NCBI GenBank assembly: GCA_963708045.1
Contig: OY970181.1
Location: 643,740-707,739, forward strand
DNA length: 64,000 nt
Reading direction: 5' to 3'
DNA from: an uncultured bacterium
GTDB lineage: Bacteria; Patescibacteriota; Patescibacteriia; CAIQCM01
The notes beneath the pieces were generated by a model, which saw only the letters and a list, made by a program, of their open reading frames with translations, made no database searches and was not told the origin of the DNA. Below are positions 37,217 to 61,956 of the stretch, one piece after another. Both the position numbers and the translations under genes were made by a program. Position 1 is the first letter of the stretch. Each line of letters starts with the position of its first letter.

Positions 37217-38275
37217 ATGGAAAGAATTGTTGAAGAACTGATCGCGTTAAATGACGGCAGTTCGTTAATGTTTTGCGATGCGGGCGTGCGGGCGCAACGG
37301 ATGCGTTTTCGCGCCAAATATAAAATTCGTACGGTTTGCTTTAAGTGTGGCGACGGACGAATTAACCTGGCGCATATTACCAAAACTCCGCTGGGATTAA
37401 TTTTCCCTTTCCGGAACATCGGCGGCGTTTTTGATATGGGCTGGCCAGCGCTCGCCGAACGAGTCTGTGGAATTGTTCAAAATTCAATTGACGATGGTCG
37501 CTCAAATCTTTTTGTTGTCACCTATCATTTTTCTAAGGGCGATGTTCATCGCGGTTGTCGCGGGATGGGCTATGATAAACAAAAAGGAGTTGATAACGCC
37601 GCTCGTTTCGTTCGTCAACTAGAAGAAGTTTTTGGCTCTGGGCACGAGCAAGTTGACGTGGTGATGGTTGGAATAGAGACGGATGAAGACCTTTTAATCT
37701 TGCACGACCGGAGCGGGGCGAGGGCAATTGCGACGACGGAGGTTATGAAAGACGGCAAAGAATCGGCTGTTTCAATCATTCGTGAGTTGTATCCGGATAT
37801 GGCACCGGAAATGGTGAACTACTTTCTTCATTTGGTTGAGGGGAACGTCGCGCACGTAGAAGAGTTGCGGAAAAATCCGCGCCCGCCCGTGTCGCTTAGT
37901 CATACCGAACGCGTGCTGGCACTTGGGCAGGGTTTTGACTGGTTGCATTCGCCTAATTTCGCCGTCATTGTCAATTACTTTGATCCGATGTTGGACGACG
38001 CGGTTGGTACCGGCGCTGGCATCATCATTAATAATCGCGACGAGGGAAGGATACCTAACGACAATGCCTTGCTGGTTGCGTCAATTGGTTATCGCGAGCA
38101 AGGATTTCAATACAACGCCGCCAAAGCACAAGCTTTTTATTTGGCAAGGTTGGGAATGGAATCTGTTCGTAAGTTTCATCCAGGGAACGAAGGGTTTTTT
38201 CATTCAGTTGTCGGTGTTGTTGATATGTATCGGCGGAAATTGGAAATTCTTCGGGTCAACGGCTTATCGGTTTAG
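37217..38275 (+). CDS. hypothetical cytoplasmic protein with beta-carbonic-anhydrase-like CxDxR...HxxC signature
   Basis: 'KCGDGR' (C44-x-D46-x-R48) and 'HRGC' (H111, C114) spaced like beta-CA zinc ligands; GGGAGG RBS; strong terminator follows. Confidence 0.4.
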   Translation: MERIVEELIALNDGSSLMFCDAGVRAQRMRFRAKYKIRTVCFKCGDGRINLAHITKTPLGLIFPFRNIGGVFDMGWPALAERVCGIVQNSIDDGRSNLFVVTYHFSKGDVHRGCRGMGYDKQKGVDNAARFVRQLEEVFGSGHEQVDVVMVGIETDEDLLILHDRSGARAIATTEVMKDGKESAVSIIRELYPDMAPEMVNYFLHLVEGNVAHVEELRKNPRPPVSLSHTERVLALGQGFDWLHSPNFAVIVNYFDPMLDDAVGTGAGIIINNRDEGRIPNDNALLVASIGYREQGFQYNAAKAQAFYLARLGMESVRKFHPGNEGFFHSVVGVVDMYRRKLEILRVNGLSV

Positions 38276-38284
38276 TTCGCGTTT

Positions 38285-38330
38285 TTCACCCCAACCAAGC
38301 TCGGCTTGGTTGGGGTGAAGTTATATTTTC
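38285..38330 (+). terminator. rho-independent terminator
   Basis: Perfect 16-bp stem 'TTCACCCCAACCAAGC-TCG-GCTTGGTTGGGGTGAA' followed by a T-rich tail. Confidence 0.65.
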
Positions 38331-38387
38331 GTCACAAAGAGTGCACTTTACAAAGGAAATCGGTTTGCGCTATAGTTTTATCTTGAA

Positions 38388-38930
38388 ATGCTAAGACTTT
38401 TTGCGAAAACCTTGCGCACGGGAATAATCACCGAATCTCCCTCAAAGATTCGTGATTTTAATTTAGAAAATTTTGAAATAATCGGCGGCAATATTAAGAA
38501 ACTCGTGGACGAACTTTACGGCGGCCGCGCTTTGCGGATTCGCCACGTGGATGCCGGTTCAACCAATGCGGAAGAACTAGAACTCACTGCACTCGGGAAT
38601 CCGTATTACGACCTTGAACGTTTTGGTTTGTCGTTTACCGCTTCGCCAAGGCATGCCGATATTTTGACCGTTTCGGGTCCCGTAACGCGCAATATGGAAC
38701 ACGCGCTAAAAGTCGCTTATGAAATGACGCCCGAACCGAAGATAGTAGTTGCGGTGGGGGATGGGGCGATAACGGGCGGTATCTGGAATGGATCTTATGC
38801 AATCGTGGGACCGGTTCACGCAGTTATTCCGGTTGACGCAAAAATCCCCGGCGATCCGCCGTCGCCCCTCGCGATAATGAAAGGCTTGCTTTCGGCTTTG
38901 CAAACCGTCAAAGATAAAAAAGATGTTTAA
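38388..38930 (+). CDS. NuoB / hydrogenase small-subunit homologue with no cysteines
   Basis: 'YDLERFG', 'ASPRHADILTVSG', 'MTPEPKIVVAVGDGAITGG', 'IPVDAKIPGDPP' align to NuoB; every cluster-ligand Cys is replaced (CC to GS, C to G, C to D). Confidence 0.8.
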   Translation: MLRLFAKTLRTGIITESPSKIRDFNLENFEIIGGNIKKLVDELYGGRALRIRHVDAGSTNAEELELTALGNPYYDLERFGLSFTASPRHADILTVSGPVTRNMEHALKVAYEMTPEPKIVVAVGDGAITGGIWNGSYAIVGPVHAVIPVDAKIPGDPPSPLAIMKGLLSALQTVKDKKDV

Positions 38931-40932
38931 TCAAAACACGATTTCCTATTTGTTTTTTGCGGCAACGGCCTTGTCACTCGCGGCTGGAATTTTTGGTTTG
39001 TTTGGAAAAAATTCAAAAGCCTTTAATACCGTGGTTGGTGTTTTAAATATGGCGGGCGCGCTCGCGCTGGCTGTGTCCGCCGGCAGTTTTTTATTTTTGC
39101 AGGATCGCGGTTTGTTTGCGGTAGGGGACGCTCGCCTGATTGATCTTTCACACCTCGTGCCGTTTATTGGTTCGCGCGCTCTCTCTTTGGATATGCTCTC
39201 GGCCTATTTTCTTTTGCTTGTCGGCCTTGGTGTTTTTCTTGTTTCTTGGTTTGGAATATTTTATTTGCCGCGCTACAAAGAACAGTATCGTTTCCCTTGG
39301 CTTCACATTGCGACGGCGCTGTTTATTTTTGGAATGGAAATTACCGTTGTCGCCGGAACGCCGTTGGTTTTTCTTTTTGCTTGGGAAATAATGTCGTTTG
39401 CCGCGTATTTTTTGGTGATTGCCGACCGCAAAGCCGAATCGGTTAAAGCTGGTTTTTCTTATATCATTATGACCCAGCTTGGCGCCGCTTGTTTGCTTGC
39501 TGGTTTTGCGATTGTTTCGGGTGGTAATATGAACGCGCTGCTTTCTGGTTTGCAATTAGCGCCGGGCGCGGCGGCGGTTGCCGGCTTGGTTTTGCTGATC
39601 ATTGGTTTTGCCGCCAAGGCCGGTATTTTCCCGTTTCACGAATGGCTTCCACTCGCGCATCCGCAAGCGCCGTCGTCAGCTTCGGCACTTATGAGCGGCG
39701 TGATGCTTAAGGTGGCGCTTTACGGACTTTTGCGAACACTCCAAACGATCGCCCATTTTTCTCTACCTCTCTCTGTGGTTCTCATCATTATCGGCTTTGC
39801 GCTTTTTACTGCGTTTTACGGCGCACTGATGGCGGCGGTGGAAACCGACCTTAAACGAACTTTGGCTTGGAGTTCGGTTGAAAATATGGGGTTAATGTTT
39901 GCGATGGCTGGCACGGTTACTTTTTTGGTGCAACTTGGCGCGATGGATGCCGCGGGCGCCGTTTGGATCGCGCTTTTTGTTTTTGCCTTTTGCCATATGC
40001 TTTTTAAGTCGGGTTTGTTTATGGCCGCGGGCGCGCTTATTTCGGAAACACATACGCGTGACCTTGATCTAATGGGTGGACTGGCGAAAAAGTGGCCGGT
40101 TTTCTCGGGTTGGTTTTTATTGCTCGCGCTTTCGGCCGCCGCCTTGCCGCCGGCGGGAACGTTTTATGCGGAATGGATTTTCTTAACGACGGCGGGCGCG
40201 GTTGCGAGCGCTGGCGCGGTTGTCGGATTTATTTTTGTAATCATAATTTCTATTTTTGCTTTGGCCGCTGGTTTAGCTGCGTTTGCAATGATTAAAGTTT
40301 TTGCCGCCGCGTTTCTTGCAAAGCCGCGGAGTGAACATTCGGAACACGCCAAAAGAATGCCAAAAGCGCTTTATGCGCCAGCGGCCGTCGCCGCCGCTTT
40401 GTGCGTTGGCCTTGGTTTGGCACTTCCATATTTTTTGCGCGGCTTATGGCCAAGCGCGGAACGCGTGGTATTTTCTAACGCTTCGCTTATCGCTAGTGGC
40501 GCAAAACTTTCGCCCTTGTTTGTTGCCGCGGCCTTTGTCTTTGTCGCACTTGGCGTTTGGCTGATTCGTTTAGCTTTTAACCGACGCAAGATTCGCATTA
40601 CGGATACCTGGGACTGCGGCGCGCCGCTAACAGCTCGTATGGAATACACGGCAACGGCTTTTTCCGCGCCGCCGCGTTTCTTTTTCCGCGCCTTTACTTT
40701 GCCTTGGAAAAAAATGTCCGTCACGCCAGTTACATTGGGAAACAAATGGATCGCGCAAAAAAAATTGGAGCACGGCACAAAAATGCTCGCCGAGCGCTTT
40801 CTTTATCAACCGGTCGCAATGACGCTTGACCGTCTTTCGGGCGGCGTAAAACTGATGCAAAATGGTGTGGTTCAGTTTTATCTGGCGCTTATCTTTGTTG
40901 CTTTGGTCGTAACGCTTATTGTTGCCCTATGA
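38923..40932 (+). CDS. NuoL/MrpA/HyfB-like antiporter-type membrane subunit
   Basis: 'FPFHEWLPLAHPQAPSSASALMSGVMLKVALYGLLR' hallmark motif; 669 aa and about 16 TM helices; ATG overlaps upstream stop. Confidence 0.8.
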   Translation: MFNQNTISYLFFAATALSLAAGIFGLFGKNSKAFNTVVGVLNMAGALALAVSAGSFLFLQDRGLFAVGDARLIDLSHLVPFIGSRALSLDMLSAYFLLLVGLGVFLVSWFGIFYLPRYKEQYRFPWLHIATALFIFGMEITVVAGTPLVFLFAWEIMSFAAYFLVIADRKAESVKAGFSYIIMTQLGAACLLAGFAIVSGGNMNALLSGLQLAPGAAAVAGLVLLIIGFAAKAGIFPFHEWLPLAHPQAPSSASALMSGVMLKVALYGLLRTLQTIAHFSLPLSVVLIIIGFALFTAFYGALMAAVETDLKRTLAWSSVENMGLMFAMAGTVTFLVQLGAMDAAGAVWIALFVFAFCHMLFKSGLFMAAGALISETHTRDLDLMGGLAKKWPVFSGWFLLLALSAAALPPAGTFYAEWIFLTTAGAVASAGAVVGFIFVIIISIFALAAGLAAFAMIKVFAAAFLAKPRSEHSEHAKRMPKALYAPAAVAAALCVGLGLALPYFLRGLWPSAERVVFSNASLIASGAKLSPLFVAAAFVFVALGVWLIRLAFNRRKIRITDTWDCGAPLTARMEYTATAFSAPPRFFFRAFTLPWKKMSVTPVTLGNKWIAQKKLEHGTKMLAERFLYQPVAMTLDRLSGGVKLMQNGVVQFYLALIFVALVVTLIVAL

Positions 40933-41852
40933 ACACGGTAAATTTAATTATCAGCACAGTTATTATTATTCTTCTCGCGCCGCTTTTTACCGGCTTGATT
41001 CGGAAATTTAAAGCGTTTTTTGGTAATCGCCGCGGCGCGCCCTTGCTTCAGCCATATCGTTCGCTGGCCACGCTTACAAAAAAAGAAATGACGATATCTG
41101 AACACGCAAGCTGGGTGTTTCACGGCGTACCGTTTGTTGTTTTGGGTTGTGCAATTTTTGTGGCCGTGATTGTTCCGACGTTTTTTGCGAGCGGTGTCAC
41201 AATTGGCAATTTATTTTTACTCTCCGCGGTTTTGATGATCGGCGCTTGTGCTTTAGTTTTGGGTGGAATGGACACAGCCTCGGCTTTTGGCGGAATGGGT
41301 GCTAGCCGCGAAATGACCATTGCCGCGCTGACCGAGCCAGTGCTTGTTCTTGCGCTGGTTGCGCTTGGTGCGACGACTGGTTCGTGGACTGCGGGTGGAG
41401 TGCTACAGGAAATGGCTTTGGCGCCGTGGTGGCTGGTGCATCCGTTTATGGTGCTCGTCTTTGGCGCTTTGGCGATGATTGTTTTGGCCGAAGGCGCGCG
41501 CTATCCGGTTGATAACCCGACCACCCACCTTGAACTCACAATGGTTCACGAAGCAATGGTGCTTGAATATTCTGGTCCGTATTTGGCGATGCTTGAATAT
41601 GCGGCGGCTTTAAAATATGCCGTGCTCGCCGTTTTCTTCGTTAACTTAGTCGTGCCTTATAGTGTTTGGGGCGCGGGCGCGACGCTTACTGCTGGCATTA
41701 TCGGTTTTGCTGTTAAGTTTATTTTGGCCGCGTTCCTTACAGCGTTTCTTGAATCAATGGTTGCCAAAATGCGCTTCTACCGCTTGCAAGAATATTTTAC
41801 GGCTGCTTACTTGCTCGTATTTTTTGGTTTTTTACTTTCCTTGATGTTCTAA
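40929..41852 (+). CDS. NuoH/HycD-like membrane subunit
   Basis: 'GNRRGAPLLQPYRSLATLTKKE' loop resembling NuoH 'R.GP...QP..D..KL..KE'; 8 TM helices; ATGA overlap. Confidence 0.7.
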   Translation: MNTVNLIISTVIIILLAPLFTGLIRKFKAFFGNRRGAPLLQPYRSLATLTKKEMTISEHASWVFHGVPFVVLGCAIFVAVIVPTFFASGVTIGNLFLLSAVLMIGACALVLGGMDTASAFGGMGASREMTIAALTEPVLVLALVALGATTGSWTAGGVLQEMALAPWWLVHPFMVLVFGALAMIVLAEGARYPVDNPTTHLELTMVHEAMVLEYSGPYLAMLEYAAALKYAVLAVFFVNLVVPYSVWGAGATLTAGIIGFAVKFILAAFLTAFLESMVAKMRFYRLQEYFTAAYLLVFFGFLLSLMF

Positions 41853-41856
41853 AGCT

Positions 41857-42513
41857 ATGACTGCTGACACTTATCGTTTATTGGTTGATATCCTCGCAGG
41901 TGTGATGCTTGTTTCTGGAGTTTTTATGCTTGGTCGCGTTCGCGTCCGCTCGCTTTTGCGTTTCTTTGCCGTGCAATCGTTCGCGCTCGCGCTTGTCGCC
42001 GCGGCAAGTGCGATCTTTGAAGGGCGTTGGCACCTAATGGCGACAGCGATTCTTGTTTTTGCTATAAAAACAATTTTTTTGCCGCTGTTTATGGTCTCGG
42101 TTATGGCCAAAGGGCGCATTTACGAACGGCTGGTTTTTGCAATGCGTCCGGCACTGTCAATGTTTGTCGGCGCGATAATGGCAGTGCTTGGTTTTTATCT
42201 GACGGCTTCGCTTATTCCCGAACTTGGCGATAATTTTTTCGTGGTTGCAGTTTCGGTTTCCATTGCCCTTGTTGGTCTCCTAATGCTTATGACGCGCAAA
42301 GGACTCTACGGCCAAATCGTCGGCTTCCTAATTTTAGAGAACGGGATTTTTACTTTGGGGATGGCGCTTACCGGAGGGATGCCGCTCATTGTTGAGGTTG
42401 GAATATTTTTTGACGTAACCGTTGGCGCGATTATTATGGCCTTGCTTTCATATCGCGTTCACAGCGAAAGCCGCCGCGCTGACACTGAGTATTTGGAAAC
42501 TCTTATTGACTAG
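41857..42513 (+). CDS. HyfE/NuoK-family small membrane subunit
   Basis: 218 aa with 6-7 TM helices, no Cys-rich motif; position and size match HyfE. Confidence 0.5.
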   Translation: MTADTYRLLVDILAGVMLVSGVFMLGRVRVRSLLRFFAVQSFALALVAAASAIFEGRWHLMATAILVFAIKTIFLPLFMVSVMAKGRIYERLVFAMRPALSMFVGAIMAVLGFYLTASLIPELGDNFFVVAVSVSIALVGLLMLMTRKGLYGQIVGFLILENGIFTLGMALTGGMPLIVEVGIFFDVTVGAIIMALLSYRVHSESRRADTEYLETLID

Positions 42514-42516
42514 CTT

Positions 42517-43977
42517 ATGTATATAATTTTTGCCGTCCTAGCCGCCGCCATCACCGCCCTTGTTTGTCTTTTTGCGCGGAATTATCGCGCGCTCACGATC
42601 TCGGCCGTTAGCGGATCGTTTGTTGTTTTTGCCTTCGCGCTCATTTCCATCGGCGCTTGGTTTGGTTTTATTCCGGGGAGTATGGCTTGGCTTAAGTTTG
42701 ACGGGTTTGGCGCGGTGATGTTGGCGCTCGTTGCCGTCGTGCAACTTTTTGCGACCATTTCAAGCGTTCCGTATTTGCGCGCGGAAATAGAAGAGGGGAC
42801 GGTTACTTTTTCGCAAGCGCGTTGGTATAACGCGCTAATTCCAGCCTTTGTCATTTCAATGATCCTCGCGGTTTCGGTTGATTCGCTTGGTCTTATGTGG
42901 ATTGCGATGGAAGGCACGACGCTTGCGACGACAATGCTTGTAGCTTTTTATACAAAAGAAGGTTCGCTTGAAGCGGCTTGGAAATATATTCTCGTTTGCT
43001 CGGCCGGCATTGCGATTGGTTTGATTGGCGTTCTCCTTATCTTCTATGCCGCTTTTTTGGGAAGCGGCAGCGAAACCGTTTCCATAACTTGGACAAGCCT
43101 TTTGGCGTCGGCGCACTTGTTGCCGCCGGCAGTTGTTAAATTGGCGTTCGTTTTTGCTTTCATCGGTTTTGGCACCAAAGTCGGAATGGTGCCAATGCAT
43201 ACTTGGCTTCCCGATGCCCATGGCAGGACGCCGTCGCCGGTTTCGGGAATGCTTTCGGCTGTGCTTTTGCCAATCGCGCTTTTGATTATTTATCGTGCCA
43301 AGGTGGTTGTTGATGCCGTTCTTGGCTCGGCTGACTGGAGCAATGGTTTCTTTATTTTCTTTGGCGCGCTTTCGGTTGCCGTGTCGGTTTGTTTTATGGT
43401 GAGGCAAAAAAACTACAAGCGCCTGCTCGCTTATTCCTCCATAGAACATATGGGCTTTGCGGTTTTTGCCTTAGGCTTTGGAAAGCTCGGTGTAATTTTT
43501 GCGATGATTCACATTATCGGCCATGCCCTAATTAAATCGGCACTCTTCTTTGGCACGGGTAATATTTTGATCGCCTATAAAAGCACCAAGTTTGACAAGG
43601 TGGCGATGGTTGCCAAATATTTGCCAAGACTCTCTGTACTTTTTGTCATTGCCTTGCTAATGCTTTTGGCCGTACCGCCGTCGCCGCTTTTCTTTTCCGA
43701 GCTGGGAATTTTTGCGCTGGGTTTTGGCACGCATCCGCTCGCTTCAGCCATCGTGCTCGCCGCTTCGGTTATCGCCGCTGGTTCGTTTTTTATGAATTTT
43801 ATTCCGATGTTTTTTCTTGGTCACGACGACGCCCGGCCGACGCATAAAGAAGTTGAACATTGGAACGCGACGCATACGGCGATTGCGGCCGGTTTGGTTT
43901 TAGCCGTGGCTTTTGGTGTGTCGCTTCTCGCTGGTTCTGGCCGCGAAATGCTTGCTCAAATTATTTCAATCATCTAG
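42517..43977 (+). CDS. NuoN/NuoM/HyfF-like antiporter-type membrane subunit
   Basis: 'MVPMHTWLPDAHGRTPSPVSGMLSAVLLPIALL' hallmark motif; 486 aa. Confidence 0.8.
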   Translation: MYIIFAVLAAAITALVCLFARNYRALTISAVSGSFVVFAFALISIGAWFGFIPGSMAWLKFDGFGAVMLALVAVVQLFATISSVPYLRAEIEEGTVTFSQARWYNALIPAFVISMILAVSVDSLGLMWIAMEGTTLATTMLVAFYTKEGSLEAAWKYILVCSAGIAIGLIGVLLIFYAAFLGSGSETVSITWTSLLASAHLLPPAVVKLAFVFAFIGFGTKVGMVPMHTWLPDAHGRTPSPVSGMLSAVLLPIALLIIYRAKVVVDAVLGSADWSNGFFIFFGALSVAVSVCFMVRQKNYKRLLAYSSIEHMGFAVFALGFGKLGVIFAMIHIIGHALIKSALFFGTGNILIAYKSTKFDKVAMVAKYLPRLSVLFVIALLMLLAVPPSPLFFSELGIFALGFGTHPLASAIVLAASVIAAGSFFMNFIPMFFLGHDDARPTHKEVEHWNATHTAIAAGLVLAVAFGVSLLAGSGREMLAQIISII

Positions 43978-43982
43978 ACATT

Positions 43983-45542
43983 ATGGAAATAAAAGATATT
44001 GTCGCCGAACTTAAACTTGTCGCGCCGGAAAAGAAAACCGAATCCGAGCCGGTTTTTGACGTTGCTCGCGAAAACATTGCCGTGCTTGCCGACAAGCTTG
44101 TAAATAGTCTTGGCTTGTCGCTCGCGCAAATGTTTGCCGTGGAAGAAAAACGCGGCGTTTCGTTTTCGCTTTATGTGGTTTTTCGCACGAACGGAGCAGT
44201 GCCGTATTTTTCTTTGCGCACCGCGATACTAGCAAACGATCCGCACTACCCGTCGCTTACGGCGCACGTTATGGCGGCACATTGGTATGAACGCCTAATT
44301 CAAGATATGTTCGGCTTGGTTGCCGACGGTCATCCTGATTCGCGGCGCTTAGTTCATCACGAAAATATTCCCGCGGCCACACATCCGCTCCGAAAAGATT
44401 TTTCGTGGAACGAAAAGCTCGCGCACGCGAGCGAACCGTACCCAATGCATCGCGTGGAAGGCAAGGGGATTTATGAAATTCCCGTTGGCCCAATTCACGC
44501 CGGCATTATTGAACCGGGACATTTTCGTTTTAATGTCATTGGCGAACGGGTTATAACACTGGAGGGAAAATTATTTTTCAAACACAAAGGCGTGGAAAAA
44601 ATTTTGGAGGGCAAAACGCCGACCGAAGCCCTGCCGTTTGTTGAACGCGTTTCTGGCGATATGGCCGTGGGTCACACTTTGGCTTTTTGCCAAGCCGTAG
44701 AAACTATCGCCGGGACGAAAGTTTCAGGGCGGGCAAAGTATTTGCGCGTCGTCCTTTCCGAGTTTGAACGCGTCATAATGCACTTGCACGATATTTCCAA
44801 CATCGGCGGCAACGGCACGGCGCTTTCGTTTATGTTTGCCCAAGGCTCAAGATTAGTTGAACGCGAACGTCGTCTTGCGGAAAAACTTTTTGGCCATCGC
44901 TTTTTGCGCGGCAACATTATTCCAGGCGGTGTTACGCACGACCTAGACGCCACCCAAGCCAACGAATTAACGGTTGAGTTGGAATATATCAGAAAAGAAA
45001 TTGACGCCCTAGAAAAAATCGCTCGCAATTCGGACAGTTTTATGGAGCGACTTGAAACCACTGGCATCCTTAAACAAGACGCCGCGATCGCTTATGGCGC
45101 AGTTGGACTTCCGGCACGAGCCTCCGGCCTTACCTGGGACGTCCGCCTTGGCGCGCCGTATGCCGCCTACAACAAATTAAGCCCAATCATTAAAGTGGAA
45201 CAGTCCGGCGACGTTTACGCCAGATTTATTATGCGCTTCCGCGAAATTCGCGAAGCCATTCGTTTAATTAAAGAAGCGCTTGCAACTATGCCTACTGGCT
45301 CACTTGCTACTAGCTTTGTGCCACAAGCTGGCAGCGCGCTTGGATATGCCGAAAGCTGGCGCGGCGAAATATTAGACTGGGTCAAACTAGACAAAGACGG
45401 CCGCATTGACCGCTGCGTTATCCGCGACCCAAGCTTCTGCAACTGGTCCCTCTTCAGCGAACTAACCCCCGGCAACATCGTCCCCGACTTCCCAATCTGC
45501 AACAAAAGTCTGAACTTGTCGTATTCGGGGAATGATTTGTAG
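43983..45542 (+). CDS. NuoC-NuoD fusion / HycE-like large subunit lacking NiFe-ligand cysteines
   Basis: N-terminal NuoC-like 'YERLIQDMFGLVADGHPDSRRL'; NuoD/hydrogenase core 'GPIHAGIIEPGHFRF'; L1 position reads 'ERVSGDMAVGH' (not R.CG.C...H); C-terminal 'DPSFCNW' instead of DPCxxC. Confidence 0.8.
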   Translation: MEIKDIVAELKLVAPEKKTESEPVFDVARENIAVLADKLVNSLGLSLAQMFAVEEKRGVSFSLYVVFRTNGAVPYFSLRTAILANDPHYPSLTAHVMAAHWYERLIQDMFGLVADGHPDSRRLVHHENIPAATHPLRKDFSWNEKLAHASEPYPMHRVEGKGIYEIPVGPIHAGIIEPGHFRFNVIGERVITLEGKLFFKHKGVEKILEGKTPTEALPFVERVSGDMAVGHTLAFCQAVETIAGTKVSGRAKYLRVVLSEFERVIMHLHDISNIGGNGTALSFMFAQGSRLVERERRLAEKLFGHRFLRGNIIPGGVTHDLDATQANELTVELEYIRKEIDALEKIARNSDSFMERLETTGILKQDAAIAYGAVGLPARASGLTWDVRLGAPYAAYNKLSPIIKVEQSGDVYARFIMRFREIREAIRLIKEALATMPTGSLATSFVPQAGSALGYAESWRGEILDWVKLDKDGRIDRCVIRDPSFCNWSLFSELTPGNIVPDFPICNKSLNLSYSGNDL

Positions 45543-46181: not shown

Positions 46182-48167
46182 ATGAAATCAGAAAAGTCAT
46201 CAAAATTAATTGAACAAATAAATCGTAGAGTGGGGGTAGTCAACCTCTTAGCTCTCTTTAAGGCCGTGATCGTGGGAATATTATCGGCCGAGGCTTTTTA
46301 TGTTGCGAAAGTCATCGCCAATCTGCTAGAAGAAACTATAAAAAGGGCAAATTTTGAAAATTGGGCAATTGCAATCAGTGTTTTATGTCTCGTAATCGTT
46401 GGTATTTATGTGTTTGTGAGGGGACTATTTTTTGACATTTGGAAGATACTGAAAAGTTTACGGTTCGATATATACGTTTCTTTTTTATTGGGAATTTCAA
46501 TCAGCATATCATTCAATGGTATTGGAACAAATTTATATAAAACAATTCTTTCGTACTTAAATATAAGTCAGGTTTTGGTTCTCATCCTTACTCCTATTAT
46601 CGTTGGTTTGCTAATATTAATCCGCGCTGTTTTGGAAGAATTACTCGGCGGGAAAAAAGAAGATCCGTTTTTTATTCCTGACAAGGAAGAAAGATATAAA
46701 AACAACGATCTTCTTGATTATGCCAACCAAGCGACTCTTTTTGCTGAAAGAATATATAATAACGGGTCTGAGAATAGTTTAGTTTTTGGAATCGATGCGC
46801 CGTGGGGTGTTGGTAAATCAACCTTTATAAATTTTTGCATAGAATCATTTGAGGAGAAGAAATACAAAGACCGAGTTGTAGTTTATAGATTTAACCCATT
46901 GAGATACGAGGATCGGACAAATCTACTCGAAAAATTTATTGATGGATTAATAACGACTATTCAAAAAAATACATTTGCACCAGAAATTAGACCATTGATT
47001 TCGCATTACTCACGGATTATTAAGTCTAAGGTTTCGGCACCTATTTCATTTTTTGGTATCGGAATAAAATTATCTCCTGGAACCTACACGGTTGATGACG
47101 CTTTTAATGATTTAGAGTCAGCTTTAAAAAACCTTAAGAAAAAAATTGTTATAATTGTTGACGATTTGGATCGTCTTGAGCTTTCGGCAATAAAAGATGT
47201 TCTTTTTACTCTAAAAACGAGTTTTAATTTACCGAATGTGTCCTATGTTATTTGTTATGACACAGAAAATATTGCAACTTTAAACTATGGTAGCCCGGAC
47301 GATGATAAATTAATGGAGTTTTTTGAAAAATTTGTAAATGTCAAGGTAAGTCTCTTTATTGATAATAAGATACTCGAAAAATATGTTACAGATAATTTTA
47401 ATATTGCCCTACAAAATAATCTTGGAACAAATCCCATAACGCGTGAAAAAATACGAGAAGCCATTTGTGAGTTGGTAAATATATACAAATCGCAAGAAGC
47501 TCATTTGTACCAGTCATTTATTGGTGACATTAGAAAATTGAAAAGACTCATTAATACGATAATGCTTTTAAAAATCGAAGAGACTGATTTTGGAAATAGC
47601 GATTTTGACAAAAGTGATTTGGTTCATCTTTTATTGATATACATAAATTACCCGAATATTTTTCGAAAAATATATAATACTGAAACAGGCGGCAAGAGAA
47701 GATTCTTTTCGGTCGTCGCCCCACATGAGGATGGTTTTATTGGAATACCCGGCCAGCGTTCAGAGGATGGGCAATATGAAAATTCCACATACTATAAGGA
47801 ATACTTAAAGAGCCTAAATGATAATCAACGCTTTCTTTTAAATAAAATCTTTGATGTTACTAAACGATTGCCTGATACTCGTCGGATTGATTCGGTATCG
47901 CCAACGATAAAAAAATCTTATGCATGTTTTAATGGCGGTTGGGGTGCGGGGAAAAACCTTGAAGAATACCTTCATCTCATTGTTAAATTAGTGAAACCAC
48001 AAAAAAGAGGTCAGTATAAATTTTATTTGAATGCACGGGATAAGGTGAAAGGCGGAACAAGCCCCGAGGCCATTTTTAAATCAGAGAAAGATTTTAGTTT
48101 TTCTGAAAGCGAGAACAGTCATCTTCAATTCTGGAACATAATAATGGATACCGCCAACGATCTCTGA
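46182..48167 (+). CDS. KAP-family P-loop NTPase with N-terminal 4-TM domain
   Basis: KAP Walker A 'GIDAPWGVGKSTF'; Walker B 'IVIIVDDLDRLE'; four N-terminal TM helices; AT-rich. Confidence 0.75.
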   Translation: MKSEKSSKLIEQINRRVGVVNLLALFKAVIVGILSAEAFYVAKVIANLLEETIKRANFENWAIAISVLCLVIVGIYVFVRGLFFDIWKILKSLRFDIYVSFLLGISISISFNGIGTNLYKTILSYLNISQVLVLILTPIIVGLLILIRAVLEELLGGKKEDPFFIPDKEERYKNNDLLDYANQATLFAERIYNNGSENSLVFGIDAPWGVGKSTFINFCIESFEEKKYKDRVVVYRFNPLRYEDRTNLLEKFIDGLITTIQKNTFAPEIRPLISHYSRIIKSKVSAPISFFGIGIKLSPGTYTVDDAFNDLESALKNLKKKIVIIVDDLDRLELSAIKDVLFTLKTSFNLPNVSYVICYDTENIATLNYGSPDDDKLMEFFEKFVNVKVSLFIDNKILEKYVTDNFNIALQNNLGTNPITREKIREAICELVNIYKSQEAHLYQSFIGDIRKLKRLINTIMLLKIEETDFGNSDFDKSDLVHLLLIYINYPNIFRKIYNTETGGKRRFFSVVAPHEDGFIGIPGQRSEDGQYENSTYYKEYLKSLNDNQRFLLNKIFDVTKRLPDTRRIDSVSPTIKKSYACFNGGWGAGKNLEEYLHLIVKLVKPQKRGQYKFYLNARDKVKGGTSPEAIFKSEKDFSFSESENSHLQFWNIIMDTANDL

Positions 48168-48184
48168 ACTCAAAAACGGCGTCT

Positions 48185-49227
48185 GTGCTAATTGATTATC
48201 TACTTAACCACATTACAGATTATTCATTATTTAAAAACGCCGAATTGGGGGTTGGGTTGAGACATGAATTAAACTTATATCTTGTAAAATTACTTAATGA
48301 TGCTGGTTGGTCAGATCAGAATGGGGAGCATTACAATAATATTGGTAATAATTTATCAGAAATTGCTGATTGGATATTCGGTGAAAATCAACATCTTGGT
48401 AGCGGTGTACTCAATTTGTTGAGCAAGGAAGATCGTGGCGTTTTTGGACTTTACGACCTTCTCGCGTTTCGATTGTTTTGTAGTGCCGATAGGAATGGTG
48501 GGGTATATCACATTCAAGAGGCGTTATCTAAACACGGGAATCCCGACGCGATAACAAGTGGTTCGGTAAATGATATCGCGATTGGCGAGATGCGTGAGAT
48601 ATCACAAAGGGTGTTTAAAATTTTTAAAAGTCAGTATATCGAAAAAGAAGATAAATATTTTTGATGTGATTGATAAAATTACATTGGAAGATATTTCGGG
48701 TAAGTACTTAGATTATATTAATAGTAATATCTCTTCCGGAAAGGTTAAAAATGTAAACGAAACGGTCTCCGGATTAAAATCAAATCTTAAATCATTCATA
48801 ATTTATCAACTTGGAAATTCATTGATAAGCCTCGGGGTCGGTTGCGGTTATTATGACCCAACTGGAAATGAAGATAAAAAGGGTATCAAATTACAAATCA
48901 ATGATTATATTTTTGGGATTTGTTTCGAACCGTCAGATGATGATAAATATGAACATTTCTTAGACTACTTGTTAATAAATTTATCTCACAACTCTCCATT
49001 AGATCCGAGAAGTGTATTCTCTCCAAATGTAAATGAATTTACTAAAGTTCTCGAAAAAAGAAAAACTTATTAACTACTGGGAAAAACACGGCGCAAAAAT
49101 TAAAGAACTCAATTTCCCGGCTAAAGAAAAAACTATATTCACCCCGAACTATTCGGCTACATATAAGGAAGATTTATCAAATGTTTATAAAGTTCTTGAT
49201 GATTTAATTAACGAACAAATTAAATAA
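48185..49227 (+). pseudogene. candidate frame-shifted gene (three consecutive overlapping ORFs in frames 2, 0 and 1) of unknown function
   Basis: ORFs 48185..48664, 48570..49073 and 49033..49227 overlap head-to-tail at homopolymer runs (T5 near 48655; A6 and A5 near 49055); no motif recognised. Confidence 0.35.
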
Positions 49228-49252
49228 CTGTGACAGGATCGTTTGTTAATGT

Positions 49253-49822
49253 ATGTTAAATTCACAACGTGTTTATTGGGAAAATTACAAAAAAGAAATC
49301 ATAGATTCCGTGAACGTTTTGATTGAAAAAGGGCATTATAACGCCGCCGCTAAATTAATTTTATTAGGCATAGATAGTGTGGCTGGATTTTACATGGGCA
49401 GAGTGGAAAATGGATTTATAACAAAATCATTCAGTGGGTTTGTAGAAAAATATATGTGGAAATTTAATGACGTTAATTTCCCGACAAAAGGGGTTGTGTT
49501 GATTAATCGTAAGACTGGATATAGGTTCAATAAACCAAGCGAGGTACTTTACCATGTAATTCGTAATGGCTTTATTCATGATGGATTTGTAGGAATCGGT
49601 ATTGAAATATATAAAGATTTAGATTCAAGGGTATTATGGAGCGGTTCGGGTTTTAATATTTTCAGGCTAAACATTGTAGGATTTTTTGAGTACTTTAAAA
49701 TATCTCTCGTAAATTACGAGAATGATTTGAATACAGATACTGTTTTGATGCAAAAATTCGTTAATAAATATAATGATATAAACTTTTTTTCTTTTGGTTC
49801 TTTAAAAACGAAGAAGGCGTGA
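49253..49822 (+). CDS. hypothetical protein (AT-rich island)
   Basis: 189-aa ORF with AT-rich codon usage; no recognised motif. Confidence 0.4.
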   Translation: MLNSQRVYWENYKKEIIDSVNVLIEKGHYNAAAKLILLGIDSVAGFYMGRVENGFITKSFSGFVEKYMWKFNDVNFPTKGVVLINRKTGYRFNKPSEVLYHVIRNGFIHDGFVGIGIEIYKDLDSRVLWSGSGFNIFRLNIVGFFEYFKISLVNYENDLNTDTVLMQKFVNKYNDINFFSFGSLKTKKA

Positions 49823-60711: not shown

Positions 60712-61647
60712 TTAAACCGGACTCTTTTTGCGTTCGCTTAGGCGTAGCCAGATGGGCATAAAAGTTACCCAGGGGATAATGGCAAAGACGAGCGGTAGGA
60801 CAACGCTTGGGCGCGGGAAAAATTGGCTGGCGAGATAAATTGCCAAAGTAAAATTCATACACGCAAGCGAAATGGAAACGGTTTGTCTGGTTTCGTGCGT
60901 TTCCCAAGAAAAGCTGTAGTAGCCGATAATGTTGGTAATAAGAAAAAAGGCGTAAAGAATGGCGATCGTCAAAATTAAATTTTTCCAATCCGAAGTAATG
61001 GCTTCGGCCGCGCCGACTTGTTTACCGACGGCGCCAGCGATAATCAGTCCCAAGGCAACAAAAGAAAATACTTTTGTTTTGTTTTTTATTTGCGCGACCG
61101 TCTTTGGCCAAATGGCGCGGACGATTGCCGCTAAAACAAAAGGAATAAAGATAACCGTTGCGAGTTGAACGAAAATATCTGTGGCATTAACGCTAATGTT
61201 GGCACCAAAGAGAAATTTGGTAAGAGTGGGGATGGTAAACGGCGCGAAAAGCGAGGTTGTGGCCGTTAAGATCATCGTGATTGACGCTTTGCCGCCGTTT
61301 AATTCAACAAGCAGTGGCGCGGTCATACCAATCGGCATCGCGGCGAGGAGGTAAATGGCAAAAATAATATCCGCTGGCCAAATCAGCCAAACCAGCCAGA
61401 CTAAAGTTGGAAAGACAATCAACATCAGCGCGTTCGCCAGCAATAAAAATTTCCAGTCCTTTACATAATCAATGTACGAGTGAAAATTAATTTTTAAGCA
61501 GGAAAGGAAGAAAATAATTTGTAAAAAAATAGTGTTCCATTGTCCAAGGTCGTGGGCGTGCGGCACAAACATTCCCGCCAAAACGGCAACGGCCATCGTT
61601 AGAATATAGGATTGTGAGATAATGAATTTAAGAATACCTTTTAACAT
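60712..61647 (-). CDS. BASS/AEC-like polytopic membrane transporter (paralogue A)
   Basis: 311 aa with about 9 TM helices; about 45% identical to 61957..62865 ('FIPFVLAAIVRAIWPKT' versus 'FIPFAIAMIVKNIIPKT'). Confidence 0.5.
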   Translation of the reverse strand: MLKGILKFIISQSYILTMAVAVLAGMFVPHAHDLGQWNTIFLQIIFFLSCLKINFHSYIDYVKDWKFLLLANALMLIVFPTLVWLVWLIWPADIIFAIYLLAAMPIGMTAPLLVELNGGKASITMILTATTSLFAPFTIPTLTKFLFGANISVNATDIFVQLATVIFIPFVLAAIVRAIWPKTVAQIKNKTKVFSFVALGLIIAGAVGKQVGAAEAITSDWKNLILTIAILYAFFLITNIIGYYSFSWETHETRQTVSISLACMNFTLAIYLASQFFPRPSVVLPLVFAIIPWVTFMPIWLRLSERKKSPV

Positions 61648-61746
61648 AGAATGGAATTATACAATATAGTTAATAACTTGCATAAATTTATAAAAACTTT
61701 GTTTAGTTAATTTAAACAAAAAACAACCAAAGGGTTGTTTTTTATA

Positions 61747-61819
61747 TCGGGCTGGCGGGGCTCGAACCCACGACCTCACGGTCCCGAACCGTGCGTTCTA
61801 CCTACTGAACTACAGCCCG
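61747..61819 (-). tRNA. tRNA-Pro(CGG)
   Basis: Reverse complement folds as a cloverleaf: 7-bp acceptor CGGGCTG/CAGCCCG, D-arm GTTC/GAAC, anticodon stem CACGG/CCGTG with loop TTCGGGA (anticodon CGG, G37), T-arm GTGGG-TTCGAGC-CCCGC, discriminator A; CCA not encoded; hairpin terminator at 61719..61745. Confidence 0.85.
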
Positions 61820-61956
61820 AAGCGGGGAGTAAAGTGGTTGCGCTTGCGCAAACACTTTCTCCGAACGAGTGAATGTATTGCCGAGACAATACAGCCTAAC
61901 GACGAGTCAATAATGTAACACCTATGTTAATTTCTTTCAAGACTTAAGTAAAAAGC

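Follow-up and report, generated by a model that had tools for sequence, protein, structure and literature searches.

Complexes of the energy-converting-hydrogenase-related (Ehr) type are a known family, and a monophyletic clade of them in CPR bacteria, whose large subunit has no metal-binding cysteines, has already been described by Jaffe et al. 2020 (PMC7304191), who concluded that the complex "likely cannot interact with H2". In two other systems, DAB and NDH-1MS, NuoL-type subunits are coupled to sites resembling those of beta-carbonic anhydrases (bioRxiv 10.64898/2026.03.13.711513, 10.64898/2026.05.01.722082). To the known family and clade we add here a clade-wide loss of the FeS cluster, purifying selection and an invariant ion path, and we put forward a CO2/HCO3- reading of the complex as a new, testable hypothesis.

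The locus belongs to a tiny-genome CPR/Patescibacteria bacterium and lies in a 64-kb stretch of DNA, called the window below. The Ehr genes are as follows.

38388-45542, plus strand: Ehr operon, six co-directional genes in the order B-L-H-E-N-CD
38388-38930, plus strand: small subunit, NuoB/HyfI/EhrS-like, 180 aa (PF01058, 9e-26)
38923-40932, plus strand: antiporter-like subunit, HyfB/HycC/NuoL-like, 669 aa (PF00361; NCBIfam HyfB, 3e-121; PDB HycC, 7e-38)
40929-41852, plus strand: NuoH/HyfC/HycD-like subunit, 307 aa (PF00146; PDB HycD, 2e-25)
41857-42513, plus strand: HyfE-like small membrane subunit, 218 aa (NCBIfam PRK11492 'hydrogenase 4 membrane subunit', 7e-20, full length)
42517-43977, plus strand: second antiporter-like subunit, HyfF/NuoN-M-like, 486 aa (PF00361; HyfF, 6e-97)
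43983-45542, plus strand: large subunit, NuoC-NuoD fusion, HyfG/HycE-like, 519 aa (PF00329, PF00346 and weak PF00374)

All six ORFs are intact, with no internal stops, and the Pfam and NCBIfam matches bear out the gene set of the original prediction (NuoB, NuoL, NuoH, HyfE, NuoN and a NuoC-NuoD fusion). The HyfE-like subunit gave no Pfam match, and the sequence search found no PDB homologue for it. The large subunit most likely starts at ATG 43983 rather than at the upstream TTG 43860, and its 519-aa product is identical to a database protein (P0001). Overlapping start and stop codons, claimed for the operon earlier, are found at two of the five junctions (B/L, 8 nt; L/H, 4 nt), but the other three genes are separated from their predecessors by gaps of 3-5 nt. 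Some 45 further ORFs were scanned against Pfam, and nowhere in the 64 kb was a hyp gene, a formate dehydrogenase, NuoE/F/G or a ferredoxin of NuoI type detected, in agreement with the original prediction, which had named a linked ferredoxin or hyp genes as findings that would speak against it. The operon encodes homologues of HyfB, C, E, F, G and I only, a content equal to that of Hyq/Ehr. Judged by sequence, this is an intact Ehr complex of Hyf/Hyq type from a CPR-specific clade; the earlier assignment to Ehr was right, as both this gene content and a family-wide signature in the large subunit indicate.

The small subunit, for which MbhJ is the best PDB match (7e-31), contains no cysteine at all. 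Alignment to MbhJ and HycG placed T59, E62, G126 and D156 at the four [4Fe-4S] ligand positions, so that the predicted replacement of all four N2 ligands was correct, and the same substitutions occur in 120 of the 120 nearest small-subunit relatives. Among the 67 Ehr clusters for which a small subunit was recovered, 50 keep the four cysteines. Loss of the cluster occurred at least three times in the Ehr family, giving T/S-E-G/A-D in the CPR clade, TCDD/DCGD, and D-x-D-N in Methanosarcina and Dehalogenimonas, while the large-subunit signature is constant throughout, which argues that the core function of Ehr needs no electron relay.

In the large subunit, which matches HycE in the PDB (3e-62), the alignment shows 'RVSGDMAVGH' in place of HycE 'RVCGICGFAH' (C to S224, C to M227), just as had been predicted, and 'SLNLSYSGND' at the extreme C-terminus in place of 'SLDPCYSCTD' (C to S513, C to G516). 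The original prediction had taken 'DPSFCNW' for the C-terminal DPCxxC motif; this was a misalignment, since that segment pairs with HycE 'RAATYANW' and the true counterpart is 'NLSYSG'. With the alignment corrected, it still holds that no cysteine ligand is left: all four [NiFe] ligand positions are replaced (S224/M227/S513/G516), identically in 120 of 120 nearest large subunits. Ehr and hydrogenases can be told apart at K202, S224, D226, P483, N511, S513 and G516. The family-wide signature, R-x-S-G-D...H plus N-x-S-Y-S-G-x-D, recurs in 77 large subunits of Ehr complexes across many phyla, and none of 14 true hydrogenases sampled alongside has it.

The membrane arm, formed by both antiporter-like subunits and the NuoH- and HyfE-like ones, is preserved down to single residues relative to true group-4 hydrogenases. 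In the HyfB-like subunit, E155, K232, H239, K263, H358, K362 and E417 are invariant across Ehr groups and present in 11-12 of 12 co-sampled true hydrogenases. The NuoH-like subunit, the connection from the cavity to the membrane arm, conserves R34, D115, R127, E128, E136, E188, R191, D195, H200, E202, H207, E208, E213, K280 and R282 in all groups. Conserved residues also include K71, R147, E161-N162, E180 and D186 of the HyfE-like subunit and E132, K221, H228, H336, K340 and E395 of the HyfF-like one, whose TM8 position is P252 here and Asn, not Lys, in most relatives. The canonical Glu/Lys/His residues of both antiporter-like subunits, the NuoH-like loops and HyfE are thus invariant in Ehr with or without the FeS cluster and in true hydrogenases alike. 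This agrees with the earlier view of an antiporter-like arm and Q-module scaffold retained without redox cofactors, and the invariant ion path fits its suggestion of conformational ion translocation or a partner scaffold in place of electron transfer.

The Ehr of the closest relative (L007) is 70-90% identical to that of the window, and dN/dS between the two is 0.05-0.12 for the five measurable genes, with the small subunit at 0.05; for HyfE, 78% identical and with no internal stop, dS is saturated. The 120 relatives in which the substitutions are fixed cover about 55-90% identity, and the operon keeps its architecture from one CPR class to another. With no [NiFe] site, no proximal [4Fe-4S] cluster and no ferredoxin-type subunit nearby, the complex can neither transfer electrons nor produce or consume H2. 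Taken together, the substitution rates and alignments indicate that the six genes are under purifying selection and that the complex is functional but is not a redox enzyme.

Directly upstream of the operon, and not a member of it, lies a carbonic anhydrase (CA) gene, which the original prediction did not include. The region contains three features.

37217-38275, plus strand: CsoSCA-type beta-carbonic anhydrase gene, 352 aa (PF20686, 7e-8; PF00484, 2e-4)
38284-38320, plus strand: strong terminator-like hairpin separating the CA gene from the Ehr operon (17-bp stem, 9 GC pairs, T-rich tail)
38347-38376, plus strand: promoter-like site TTTACA-18-TATAGT, by consensus match only (10/12), 12 nt upstream of the start codon of the small-subunit gene

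The AlphaFold model of the CA (pLDDT 93.7) has CsoSCA structures as its top Foldseek matches in the PDB (8thm, 9g4t, 2fgy; TM 0.72-0.78, E ~1e-18), and C44-x-D46-G-R48, H104 and C114 are invariant among 31 homologues. No signal peptide or TM segment was read from its sequence. Model and conserved residues together identify the neighbour as a genuine CA-type protein. It is a candidate functional partner of Ehr, and the hairpin implies that CA and Ehr would form separate transcripts in this genome.

A CsoSCA-like CA also stands directly upstream of the small-subunit gene in L118 and L145 and is convergent in L120, and the four CAs belong to different CA clades. In a Thiobacillus locus (L074), SulP, Ehr and a CsoSCA-like CA follow one another on a single strand (spacings 7 and 300 bp); in a gammaproteobacterium (L045) a canonical beta-CA lies 113 bp downstream of the small-subunit gene. 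SulP is directly upstream of Ehr in three Methylococcales loci (L053, L056, L063) and 1.7 kb upstream, on the same strand, in a Muproteobacteria locus (L067). SulP and/or CA adjoin 6 of 11 proteobacterial Ehr loci with flanks, as against 0 of 14 true-hydrogenase loci. The SulP substrate is ambiguous from PDB matches: the Thiobacillus protein best matches a plant sulfate transporter, and only that of L063 matches first 6ki1, which we take to be BicA. The same CA family provides the last gene of operons of DabA plus 3-4 antiporter-like subunits (L112, L121, L129, L155), lies beside DabA/antiporter-like clusters in about 10 loci altogether, and is the gene right after atpC in about 10 CPR loci. 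An F1Fo atp operon is directly upstream of FeS-less Ehr in L012, L018, L118 and L145, two of them without CA. Thus CA, SulP or the F1Fo operon turns up repeatedly beside Ehr in CPR, Thiobacillus and Methylococcales, but this holds for a minority of loci only. Among nine CPR-type loci found through Ehr itself, CA adjoins only in the window and the atp operon only in L012; no CA is near the Ehr of L007, no Ehr occurs at the syntenic MacAB locus of the closest CA relatives (L009, L010, L091), and no neighbour is universally conserved across 80 Ehr loci, whose contexts are very diverse. A NuoI-like 2x[4Fe-4S] protein is encoded at four Ehr loci.

Rather than redox chemistry, the genes beside this Ehr hint at a role in handling CO2/bicarbonate and protons. 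The best explanation, to which we tentatively assign a probability of about 0.35, is a non-redox, ion-gradient-coupled conversion of CO2/HCO3-/H+ by Ehr with the CA. Ehr would be a non-redox machine in which proton movement in the membrane arm is coupled, through the NuoH/NuoB/NuoD-like junction, to a non-redox event in or close to the old metal pocket, now remodelled (Ser224-Gly-Asp226 ... Asn511-x-Ser513-Tyr-Ser-Gly516). The likeliest such event, weakly supported, may be CO2 <-> bicarbonate conversion jointly with the cytoplasmic CA, giving a 'vectorial carbonic anhydrase', or a module that handles protons and bicarbonate, by analogy with DabAB and cyanobacterial NDH-1MS/CupA; it could be energised by, or feed, the proton gradient kept by the F1Fo ATPase in a host without a respiratory chain. 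Against this reading stand the minority CA linkage, with none in L007 and no Ehr at the syntenic locus of the nearest CA relatives, the lack of a universal neighbour, the ambiguous SulP substrate, the terminator and promoter-like site between CA and Ehr, and no evident need of a fermentative episymbiont for energised carbon uptake; moreover, the sole Ehr-type genetics, on the FeS-keeping Azorhizobium Hyq, was interpreted as H2 recycling (PMC3357923).

It is possible, if on balance unlikely, that Ehr works alone as a secondary ion translocator or as a regulator of the proton gradient, for instance as an exchanger of H+ or cation/H+ that serves pH homeostasis beside the ATPase, with the NuoB/CD module a mere structural plug or gate and the CA an unrelated neighbour. 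The fully conserved ion path, the atp operon adjoining Ehr in four CPR loci (two without CA), the terminator in the window and the lack of a CA or SulP neighbour at most Ehr loci would all suit such a device. However, Mrp-type Na+/H+ exchange relies on MrpB/E/F/G-like subunits, which are not encoded here, and a proton path without a coupled reaction would be a leak; furthermore, constraint is highest on the peripheral subunits (dN/dS 0.05 for the small subunit), and a strictly invariant new signature in the former metal pocket exceeds the needs of a plug.

A membrane scaffold or assembly platform, neither carbon-related nor ion-transporting, or a function beyond known systems, is rather improbable. 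The diverse contexts without a universal partner, and a literature that up to 2025 gives no function for Ehr, would be expected of it, but the strictly conserved, buried charged residues of the proton path are hard to reconcile with a passive role.

That Ehr is still a redox or H2-related enzyme, by way of a cofactor that has gone unrecognised or of a partner whose gene lies elsewhere (cf. the proposed Hyq 'endo-hydrogenase' and FDH-Ehr complexes), is very unlikely. Deletion of hyq in Azorhizobium shifts H2 evolution about 10-fold even though HyqG has no CxxC motifs (PMC3357923), Geobacter Ehr subunits are up on formate (PMC7894505), Margulisbacteria have been proposed to contain an FDH-Ehr complex (PMC6349859), and there are the four loci with the NuoI-like protein. 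In the window, by contrast, the Cys-free small subunit leaves no wire from a donor to the pocket, and ferredoxin, FDH, NuoEFG and hyp genes are missing. CPR bacteria are reported to be without respiratory electron-transport chains and are not known to have quinones. H2 does not induce the Ehr of N. moscoviensis (PMC12342949), and the conclusion of Jaffe et al. (PMC7304191) points the same way. Finally, a decaying hydrogenase-operon relic en route to pseudogene, as the loss of every cofactor ligand might suggest and as the original prediction had considered, is effectively refuted by the six intact ORFs, the low dN/dS, the substitutions fixed in 120/120 relatives and the architecture kept across CPR classes.

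Compared with known systems, the window operon shares with Ehr complexes (Geobacter EhrA-D/L/S, Nitrospira Ehr, the CPR clade) the six-subunit inventory, the loss of the four [NiFe] cysteines and the S-G-D / N-x-S-Y-S-G-x-D signature; the CPR clade differs from most Ehr in its lost small-subunit cysteines and in having the small-subunit gene first, not last. Azorhizobium caulinodans Hyq (hyqBCEFGI) has an identical subunit set, and HyqG is likewise a NuoC-NuoD fusion without both CxxC motifs (PMC3357923), but HyqI still has the cysteines of an N2-type cluster (Cys-55, -58, -112 and -152) and its host has quinones; the H2:quinone role proposed for Hyq is impossible with the Cys-free small subunit here. 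E. coli hydrogenase-4/formate hydrogenlyase (Hyf, Hyc; 7Z0S) and P. furiosus MBH (6CFW) give the best sequence matches for every subunit and have identical proton-path residues, whereas the window Ehr is without their [NiFe] ligands, FeS cluster, HyfA/HyfH/HycF ferredoxin subunits and HyfD and has no formate dehydrogenase or hyp genes nearby. Mrp (Mnh) cation/proton antiporters also combine two MrpA/D-type subunits with no redox chemistry, but the window has no MrpB/E/F/G equivalents, and its NuoH-, NuoB- and NuoCD-like subunits are absent from Mrp. Relative to DabAB and CupA, the window has no DabA (PF10070) or CupA, its CA is a separate soluble protein with its own transcript, and its membrane partner is a whole complex-I-like module with NuoH/B/CD homologues, coupling being hypothetical. 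As in DabAB (DAB1/DAB2) and NDH-1MS/CupA, a NuoL-type proton-translocating subunit is here genomically paired with a beta-CA-type zinc enzyme, and the CsoSCA-like family of that enzyme is itself embedded in DabA plus antiporter-like operons at other loci.

All six open reading frames at positions 38388-45542 run in one direction, and each was identified by Pfam and NCBIfam matches. In gene order, the products of this energy-converting hydrogenase-related (Ehr) operon are:

NuoB/HyfI-type small subunit
HyfB/NuoL-type antiporter-like subunit
NuoH/HyfC-type subunit
HyfE-type membrane protein
HyfF/NuoN-type antiporter-like subunit
NuoC-NuoD fusion of the HyfG/HycE type (large subunit)

These matches confirm the six co-directional complex-I- and hydrogenase-like genes of the original prediction, but the overlapping start and stop codons that it described occur at only two junctions (8 nt and 4 nt), and 3-5 nt separate the genes at the other three. 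The most likely start of the large subunit is ATG 43983, since translation from this codon gives a 519-aa product that matches a database protein (P0001) exactly. The nearest solved relatives of the subunits belong to formate hydrogenlyase of E. coli (7Z0S) or to the MBH/MBS complexes of P. furiosus; for the HyfE-like subunit, neither phmmer nor a 23-sequence profile gave a meaningful PDB match, and the NCBIfam HyfE model was its only match. Relatives carry the names Kaiserbacteria, Parcubacteria, Uhrbacteria and Patescibacteria, and the same six-gene operon with the small subunit first is also present in Kaiserbacteria, Parcubacteria, Saccharibacteria and other CPR contigs, as well as on one contig of a 3.2-Mb genome.

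Alignment of the small subunit to MbhJ and HycG revealed T59, E62, G126 and D156 at the four [4Fe-4S] ligand positions, and the whole protein contains no cysteine, in accordance with the prediction of a cysteine-free NuoB homologue whose N2 ligands have been replaced. In the large subunit, 'RVCGICGFAH' of the HycE N-terminal motif is replaced by 'RVSGDMAVGH' (S224, M227) and 'SLDPCYSCTD' of the C-terminal motif by 'SLNLSYSGND' (S513, G516), and none of the four [NiFe] cysteines of L1 (RxCGxCxxxH) and L2 (DPCxxC) is kept. The loss of these ligands had also been predicted correctly, but the 'DPSFCNW' stretch taken for the C-terminal motif aligns to 'RAATYANW' of HycE, the true positions being S513 and G516. 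Cys506 was considered as a new metal ligand and rejected; it is present in 119 of 120 sequences of the CPR clade, but the position is C, I or V across Ehr at large. As for the quinone pocket, to which the original prediction had drawn attention, the quinone-binding Tyr of complex I ('LDY' motif; Nqo4 Y87) is replaced by Gly225 in the alignment to 9iho_D, and the position of the quinone-binding His (H38 of NuoD) is ambiguous, the hydrogenase-type loop being longer. Pfam scans of ~45 other ORFs in the 64-kb window found no NuoI-type ferredoxin, NuoE/F/G, formate dehydrogenase or hyp gene, and agree with the earlier reading that NuoI and NuoE/F/G are missing from it. The complex has no electron path.

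Using a profile of the large subunit, we collected 80 loci from species-representative genomes and sorted them by motif. Fourteen true hydrogenases, whose large and small subunits both read CCCC, were present among the sampled loci. Across 77 Ehr large subunits, S224, S513 and G516 were found in all 77, D226 in 72 and N511 in 71. Together with K202 and P483, each of these residues occurs in at least 90% of the 77 Ehr sequences and differs in the 14 hydrogenases, and all seven are present in the window. One cluster holds the genes for large, small, NuoH-like and antiporter-like subunits, as in relatives and as an Ehr assignment calls for. Because the large-subunit signature residues are common to Ehr and differ in true hydrogenases, we assign the window complex on sequence grounds to Ehr, the class originally proposed; the gene content and the lost [NiFe] cysteines uphold this assignment. 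Jaffe et al. 2020 reported that CPR sequences form a monophyletic subclade inside Ehr and that CPR Ehr lack the metal-binding cysteines, and concluded that they 'likely cannot interact with H2' (PMC7304191). By itself, the object in the window is therefore not new; it is a well-preserved member of a clade already in the literature. As far as we found, three elements go beyond published work, namely that the FeS cluster was lost throughout the clade and repeatedly, that the coupling residues stay invariant, and that carbonic anhydrase (CA), SulP and ATP synthase genes recur as neighbours. No discussion of the small-subunit (FeS) state in CPR Ehr was found in the literature examined.

The four small-subunit cysteines are retained in 50 of the 67 Ehr clusters with a small subunit recovered, and HyqI of Azorhizobium also has all four (PMC3357923). 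At least three lineages have lost the cluster. The CPR type is T/S-E-G/A-D: among the 120 nearest small subunits, which lack the four cysteines without exception, the ligand positions read TEGD in 101, NEGD in 8, TEAD in 5, SEGD in 5 and TEGS in 1. The four [NiFe] cysteines are likewise absent from all of the 120 nearest large subunits. A second lineage is of the TCDD/DCGD type (Daviesbacteria, Saccharibacteria, Thermoleophilia) and a third of the D-x-D-N type (Methanosarcina, Dehalogenimonas). Acidic residues take the place of cluster cysteines in all three independent lineages (E62/D156, D..D and D-x-D-N; window 38562-38855 compared with L020, L035, L055, L084, L086 and L089), which hints that a salt bridge, a cation site or the like may have arisen convergently as a stand-in for the cluster.

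Several arrangements were seen among the retrieved Ehr loci. Two Nitrospirota loci (L025 4772-19841, L041 1-14000) carry two complete Ehr operons in tandem on the same strand; their large subunits differ ('SGTSS' vs 'SGDTT') and both small subunits contain the cysteines. In Methanomassiliicoccus (L034 176-13772), the Ehr operon lies beside a smaller cluster in which the large subunit keeps all four cysteines, a true group-4 hydrogenase. A NuoI-like 2x[4Fe-4S] gene is situated between the large- and small-subunit genes in L021, L034, L060 and L069. Because genes for a sigma-54-dependent response regulator and a histidine kinase recur beside the operons of Nitrospira, Methylococcaceae and Thiobacillus (L046, L058, L070, L074, L023, L065), Ehr expression in these organisms is suggested to be regulated rather than constitutive.

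Compared with the closest Ehr relative (L007), the five computable genes gave dN/dS values of 0.05-0.12 at 71-90% protein identity, the minimum being that of the cofactor-less small subunit; dS was saturated for the HyfE-like gene (78% identity). None of the six genes contains an internal stop. The operon is thus under strong selection and is not a relic. These results, together with the fixation of the substitutions in 120 of 120 relatives, speak against pseudogenes, a possibility that the original prediction had left standing.

To describe the ion path, 72-85 homologues per subunit were aligned and grouped as FeS-less Ehr, FeS-containing Ehr and true hydrogenases. In the HyfB-like subunit, E155 (TM5), K232 and H239 (TM7), K263 (TM8), H358 and K362 (TM11) and E417 (TM12) are invariant or nearly so across the three groups. 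The HyfF-like subunit keeps the same set except at TM8, where most relatives, Ehr and CPR alike, have Asn, NuoM/N have Lys, and the window has the outlier P252 (43270-43272). Fifteen charged or polar residues of the NuoH-like subunit, including the loop 'D-x4-H-x-E...H-E...E-Y-S-G', and K71, R147, E161-N162, E180 and D186 of the HyfE-like subunit are also (near-)invariant. Since the ion-path residues are invariant or nearly so in all three groups, the machinery coupling the peripheral pocket to protons is preserved, and it is the chemistry of the pocket that differs. The proton path is intact, and the former metal pocket is both remodelled and invariant.

The gene directly upstream of the Ehr operon (37217-38275), which had escaped the original prediction, encodes a 352-aa cytoplasmic protein matching the CsoSCA catalytic domain PF20686 (7e-8). 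Its AlphaFold model (pLDDT 93.7) gave Foldseek TM scores of 0.72-0.78 to the CsoSCA structures 8thm, 9g4t and 2fgy, and its homologues share an invariant C44-x-D46-G-R48, H104 and C114, that is, the zinc triad and Asp-Arg dyad of beta-CAs. With this two-domain fold, Cys/His/Cys zinc site and dyad, the protein is a predicted CsoSCA-type beta-carbonic anhydrase. It scored 40 bits against NCBIfam TIGR02701 (cutoff 241) and, at 352 residues, is some 100 aa short of the solved CsoSCA chains (457-471 residues), the missing part presumably being the N-terminal domain. No carboxysome genes were found in the 64-kb window. Association with a carboxysome, for which a cso operon and an N-terminal Rubisco-binding region would be typical, is therefore not supported. 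Two sites lie between the CA gene and the Ehr operon:

38284-38320, terminator with a 17-bp stem
38347-38376, promoter-like site

Because these sites precede the Ehr operon, the CA gene forms its own transcription unit in the window, and co-transcription of CA and Ehr is rejected here.

Elsewhere in the window, a low-GC island (46182-49822; 0.34 vs ~0.47 in the flanks) directly downstream of the operon encodes a KAP-family P-loop NTPase (PF07693, 1.5e-44) and three ORFs without Pfam match, and resembles a defence or mobile insert gained by horizontal transfer. A giant 1662-aa ORF without Pfam match (4583-9571) covers the only GC-rich stretch (0.54 at 6-8 kb) and possibly encodes a large surface protein; the ORFs after it have an Ig-like domain or no match. 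Some 10-17 kb downstream of Ehr there are two SBF/BASS-family (Na+-coupled) transporter genes in tandem and a gene for a P-type cation ATPase (60712-62865 on the minus strand and 55108-57672). Other ion-handling genes, but no respiratory genes, are thus found in the window.

Among nine CPR-type loci reached through Ehr, a CA gene is adjacent only in the window and an ATP synthase (atp) operon only in L012. Adjacency of CA and Ehr was rejected as a conserved trait of the nearest relatives: L007 has Ehr but no CA, and at the same MacAB-flanked locus the nearest CA relatives (L009, L010, L091) carry the CA gene but no Ehr. Scanning metagenome contigs for the CA gene yielded 80 loci, many of them short. 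In two of them (L118, L145) the Ehr small-subunit gene comes right after the CA gene, and in another (L120) the CA gene and the end of the operon converge; in a neighbour-joining tree, the CAs of these three loci, the window and Thiobacillus belong to five different clades. In ~10 CPR loci, a CsoSCA-like CA directly follows atpC, and such genes also occur beside SulP transporters. The distance is 11-27 nt, as for a last atp-operon gene, in L145 (2141-11023), L006, L095, L107, L125, L131, L142, L151 and L166, and L006 has two tandem CA copies followed by a SulP/STAS transporter. The order in L145 is atpBEFHAG-D-C, 11 nt, CA, 116 nt, ehrB-L-H-E-N-CD; in L012 and L018 the atp operon abuts an FeS-less Ehr with no CA. 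The c-subunits of the linked ATP synthases read AFAEA(V/I)AIY, which is probably an H+-type rather than a Na+-type motif.

Outside CPR, Thiobacillus (L074) has SulP/STAS, Ehr and a CsoSCA-like CA on one strand, separated by 7 bp and 300 bp, and in a gammaproteobacterium (L045) the small-subunit gene is followed, 113 bp on, by a canonical beta-CA gene (PF00484, 4.5e-55), the sole such case among the Ehr loci examined. SulP lies directly upstream of Ehr in Methylococcales (L053, L056, L063), and 1.7 kb upstream on the same strand in Muproteobacteria (L067). SulP and/or CA genes adjoin 6 of the 11 proteobacterial Ehr loci whose flanks could be used, but none of the 14 hydrogenase loci sampled alongside. 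Which anion these SulP proteins would carry differs with the match: a plant sulfate transporter is the best PDB match of the L074 protein, and 6ki1 (BicA) ranks first for the L063 protein alone. The linkage of Ehr to CA, SulP and atp is recurrent, but it concerns a minority of loci that are partly non-independent phylogenetically. A CsoSCA-like CA also lies beside DabA/antiporter-like clusters in ~10 loci overall. It is the final gene of operons with a long DabA (PF10070, ~1100 aa) and 3-4 antiporter-like (PF00361) genes in L112, L121, L129 and L155 (also L005, L104, L164, L167), which look like an enlarged DAB-type system with a second carbonic anhydrase.

Because a proton conduit without coupling would be a leak, we infer that some event at or near the remodelled pocket would be coupled to proton movement. 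The best candidate for this event may be CO2/HCO3- interconversion with carbonic anhydrase, to which we assign a probability of roughly 0.35, on account of the gene-neighbourhood data and the precedent of DabAB and NDH-1MS/CupA, in which beta-CA-like sites are driven by NuoL-type subunits (bioRxiv 10.64898/2026.03.13.711513, 10.64898/2026.05.01.722082). The direction could be either way, the proton gradient being used to trap CO2 or a CO2/HCO3- disequilibrium giving rise to a gradient. With considerable reserve, we propose that Ehr complexes could make up a class of complex-I-derived 'vectorial carbonic anhydrase / bicarbonate-proton' machines not recognised before, the fourth of its kind, with the cofactor-free CPR form as the clearest case. 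In CPR, Ehr would then act as a non-redox chemiosmotic module with F1Fo ATPase and a CsoSCA-like CA, in the atp-CA-ehr order of L145 and L118; a gradient made by the ATPase would trap CO2 as bicarbonate, or alternatively the disequilibrium would be converted to proton-motive force. Such a module would account for membrane energisation in organisms that have no electron-transport chain.

A partner-independent ion translocator or regulator is a less probable alternative. No universal partner gene was found next to Ehr across the 80 loci, a NuoI-like ferredoxin occurring in only four. That the complex is a scaffold, or has some other function, is slightly less probable still; papers up to 2025 still call the function of Ehr unknown, and the conserved coupling residues speak against a passive scaffold. 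A cryptic redox or H2 enzyme, as suggested for Hyq or FDH-Ehr, is improbable in the window, being disfavoured by the cysteine-free small subunit. A decaying relic is hardly conceivable under such selection.

Ehr is widespread; about half of the Nitrospirales genomes have it, as do many methanotrophs and sulfur oxidisers, Geobacter and rhizobia, and CPR genomes by the thousand. The CPR form amounts to a 'minimal' experiment made by nature: a coupling machine of the complex-I type that has no redox cofactor and yet is under strong selection. The conserved function of the scaffold can therefore be studied apart from electron transfer. The recurrent CA/SulP/ATP synthase neighbourhood makes this function experimentally addressable. 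If the proposed role in CO2 and proton handling is true, Ehr would represent a new carbon-concentrating or proton-handling system and would bear on the long-standing question of how CPR energise their membranes without an electron-transport chain; if it is not confirmed, the object is an ordinary member of a known enigmatic family.

Compared with known systems, the window complex differs from group 4 [NiFe]-hydrogenases (Hyf/Hyc/Mbh/Ech) in having none of the four Ni-Fe cysteine ligands of the large subunit, T59/E62/G126/D156 in place of the four proximal [4Fe-4S] cysteines of the small subunit, and neither a ferredoxin-type subunit (HycF/HyfH/MbhN/EchF) nor hyp genes within 64 kb. Complex I (Nuo/Nqo) carries cluster N2 in NuoB and the quinone Tyr in NuoD, whereas the NuoB homologue here is free of cysteine and the Tyr has become Gly225; genes for NuoA, NuoJ, NuoI and the NADH-oxidising NuoE/F/G were not found in the window. 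Mrp/Mnh antiporters combine MrpA/MrpD with MrpB, C, E, F and G, whereas the window has two PF00361 subunits and a HyfE-like protein and no match to MrpB/E/F/G, which, along with the probable H+-type c-subunits of linked ATP synthases, weakens a reading as an Mrp-like Na+/H+ antiporter. In DAB, DabA (PF10070), with its beta-CA-like zinc site, shares an operon with the NuoL-like DabB. The window lacks PF10070, and its adjacent CA is of the PF20686 type and lies beyond a terminator; the likeness between the two systems would be one of function only.
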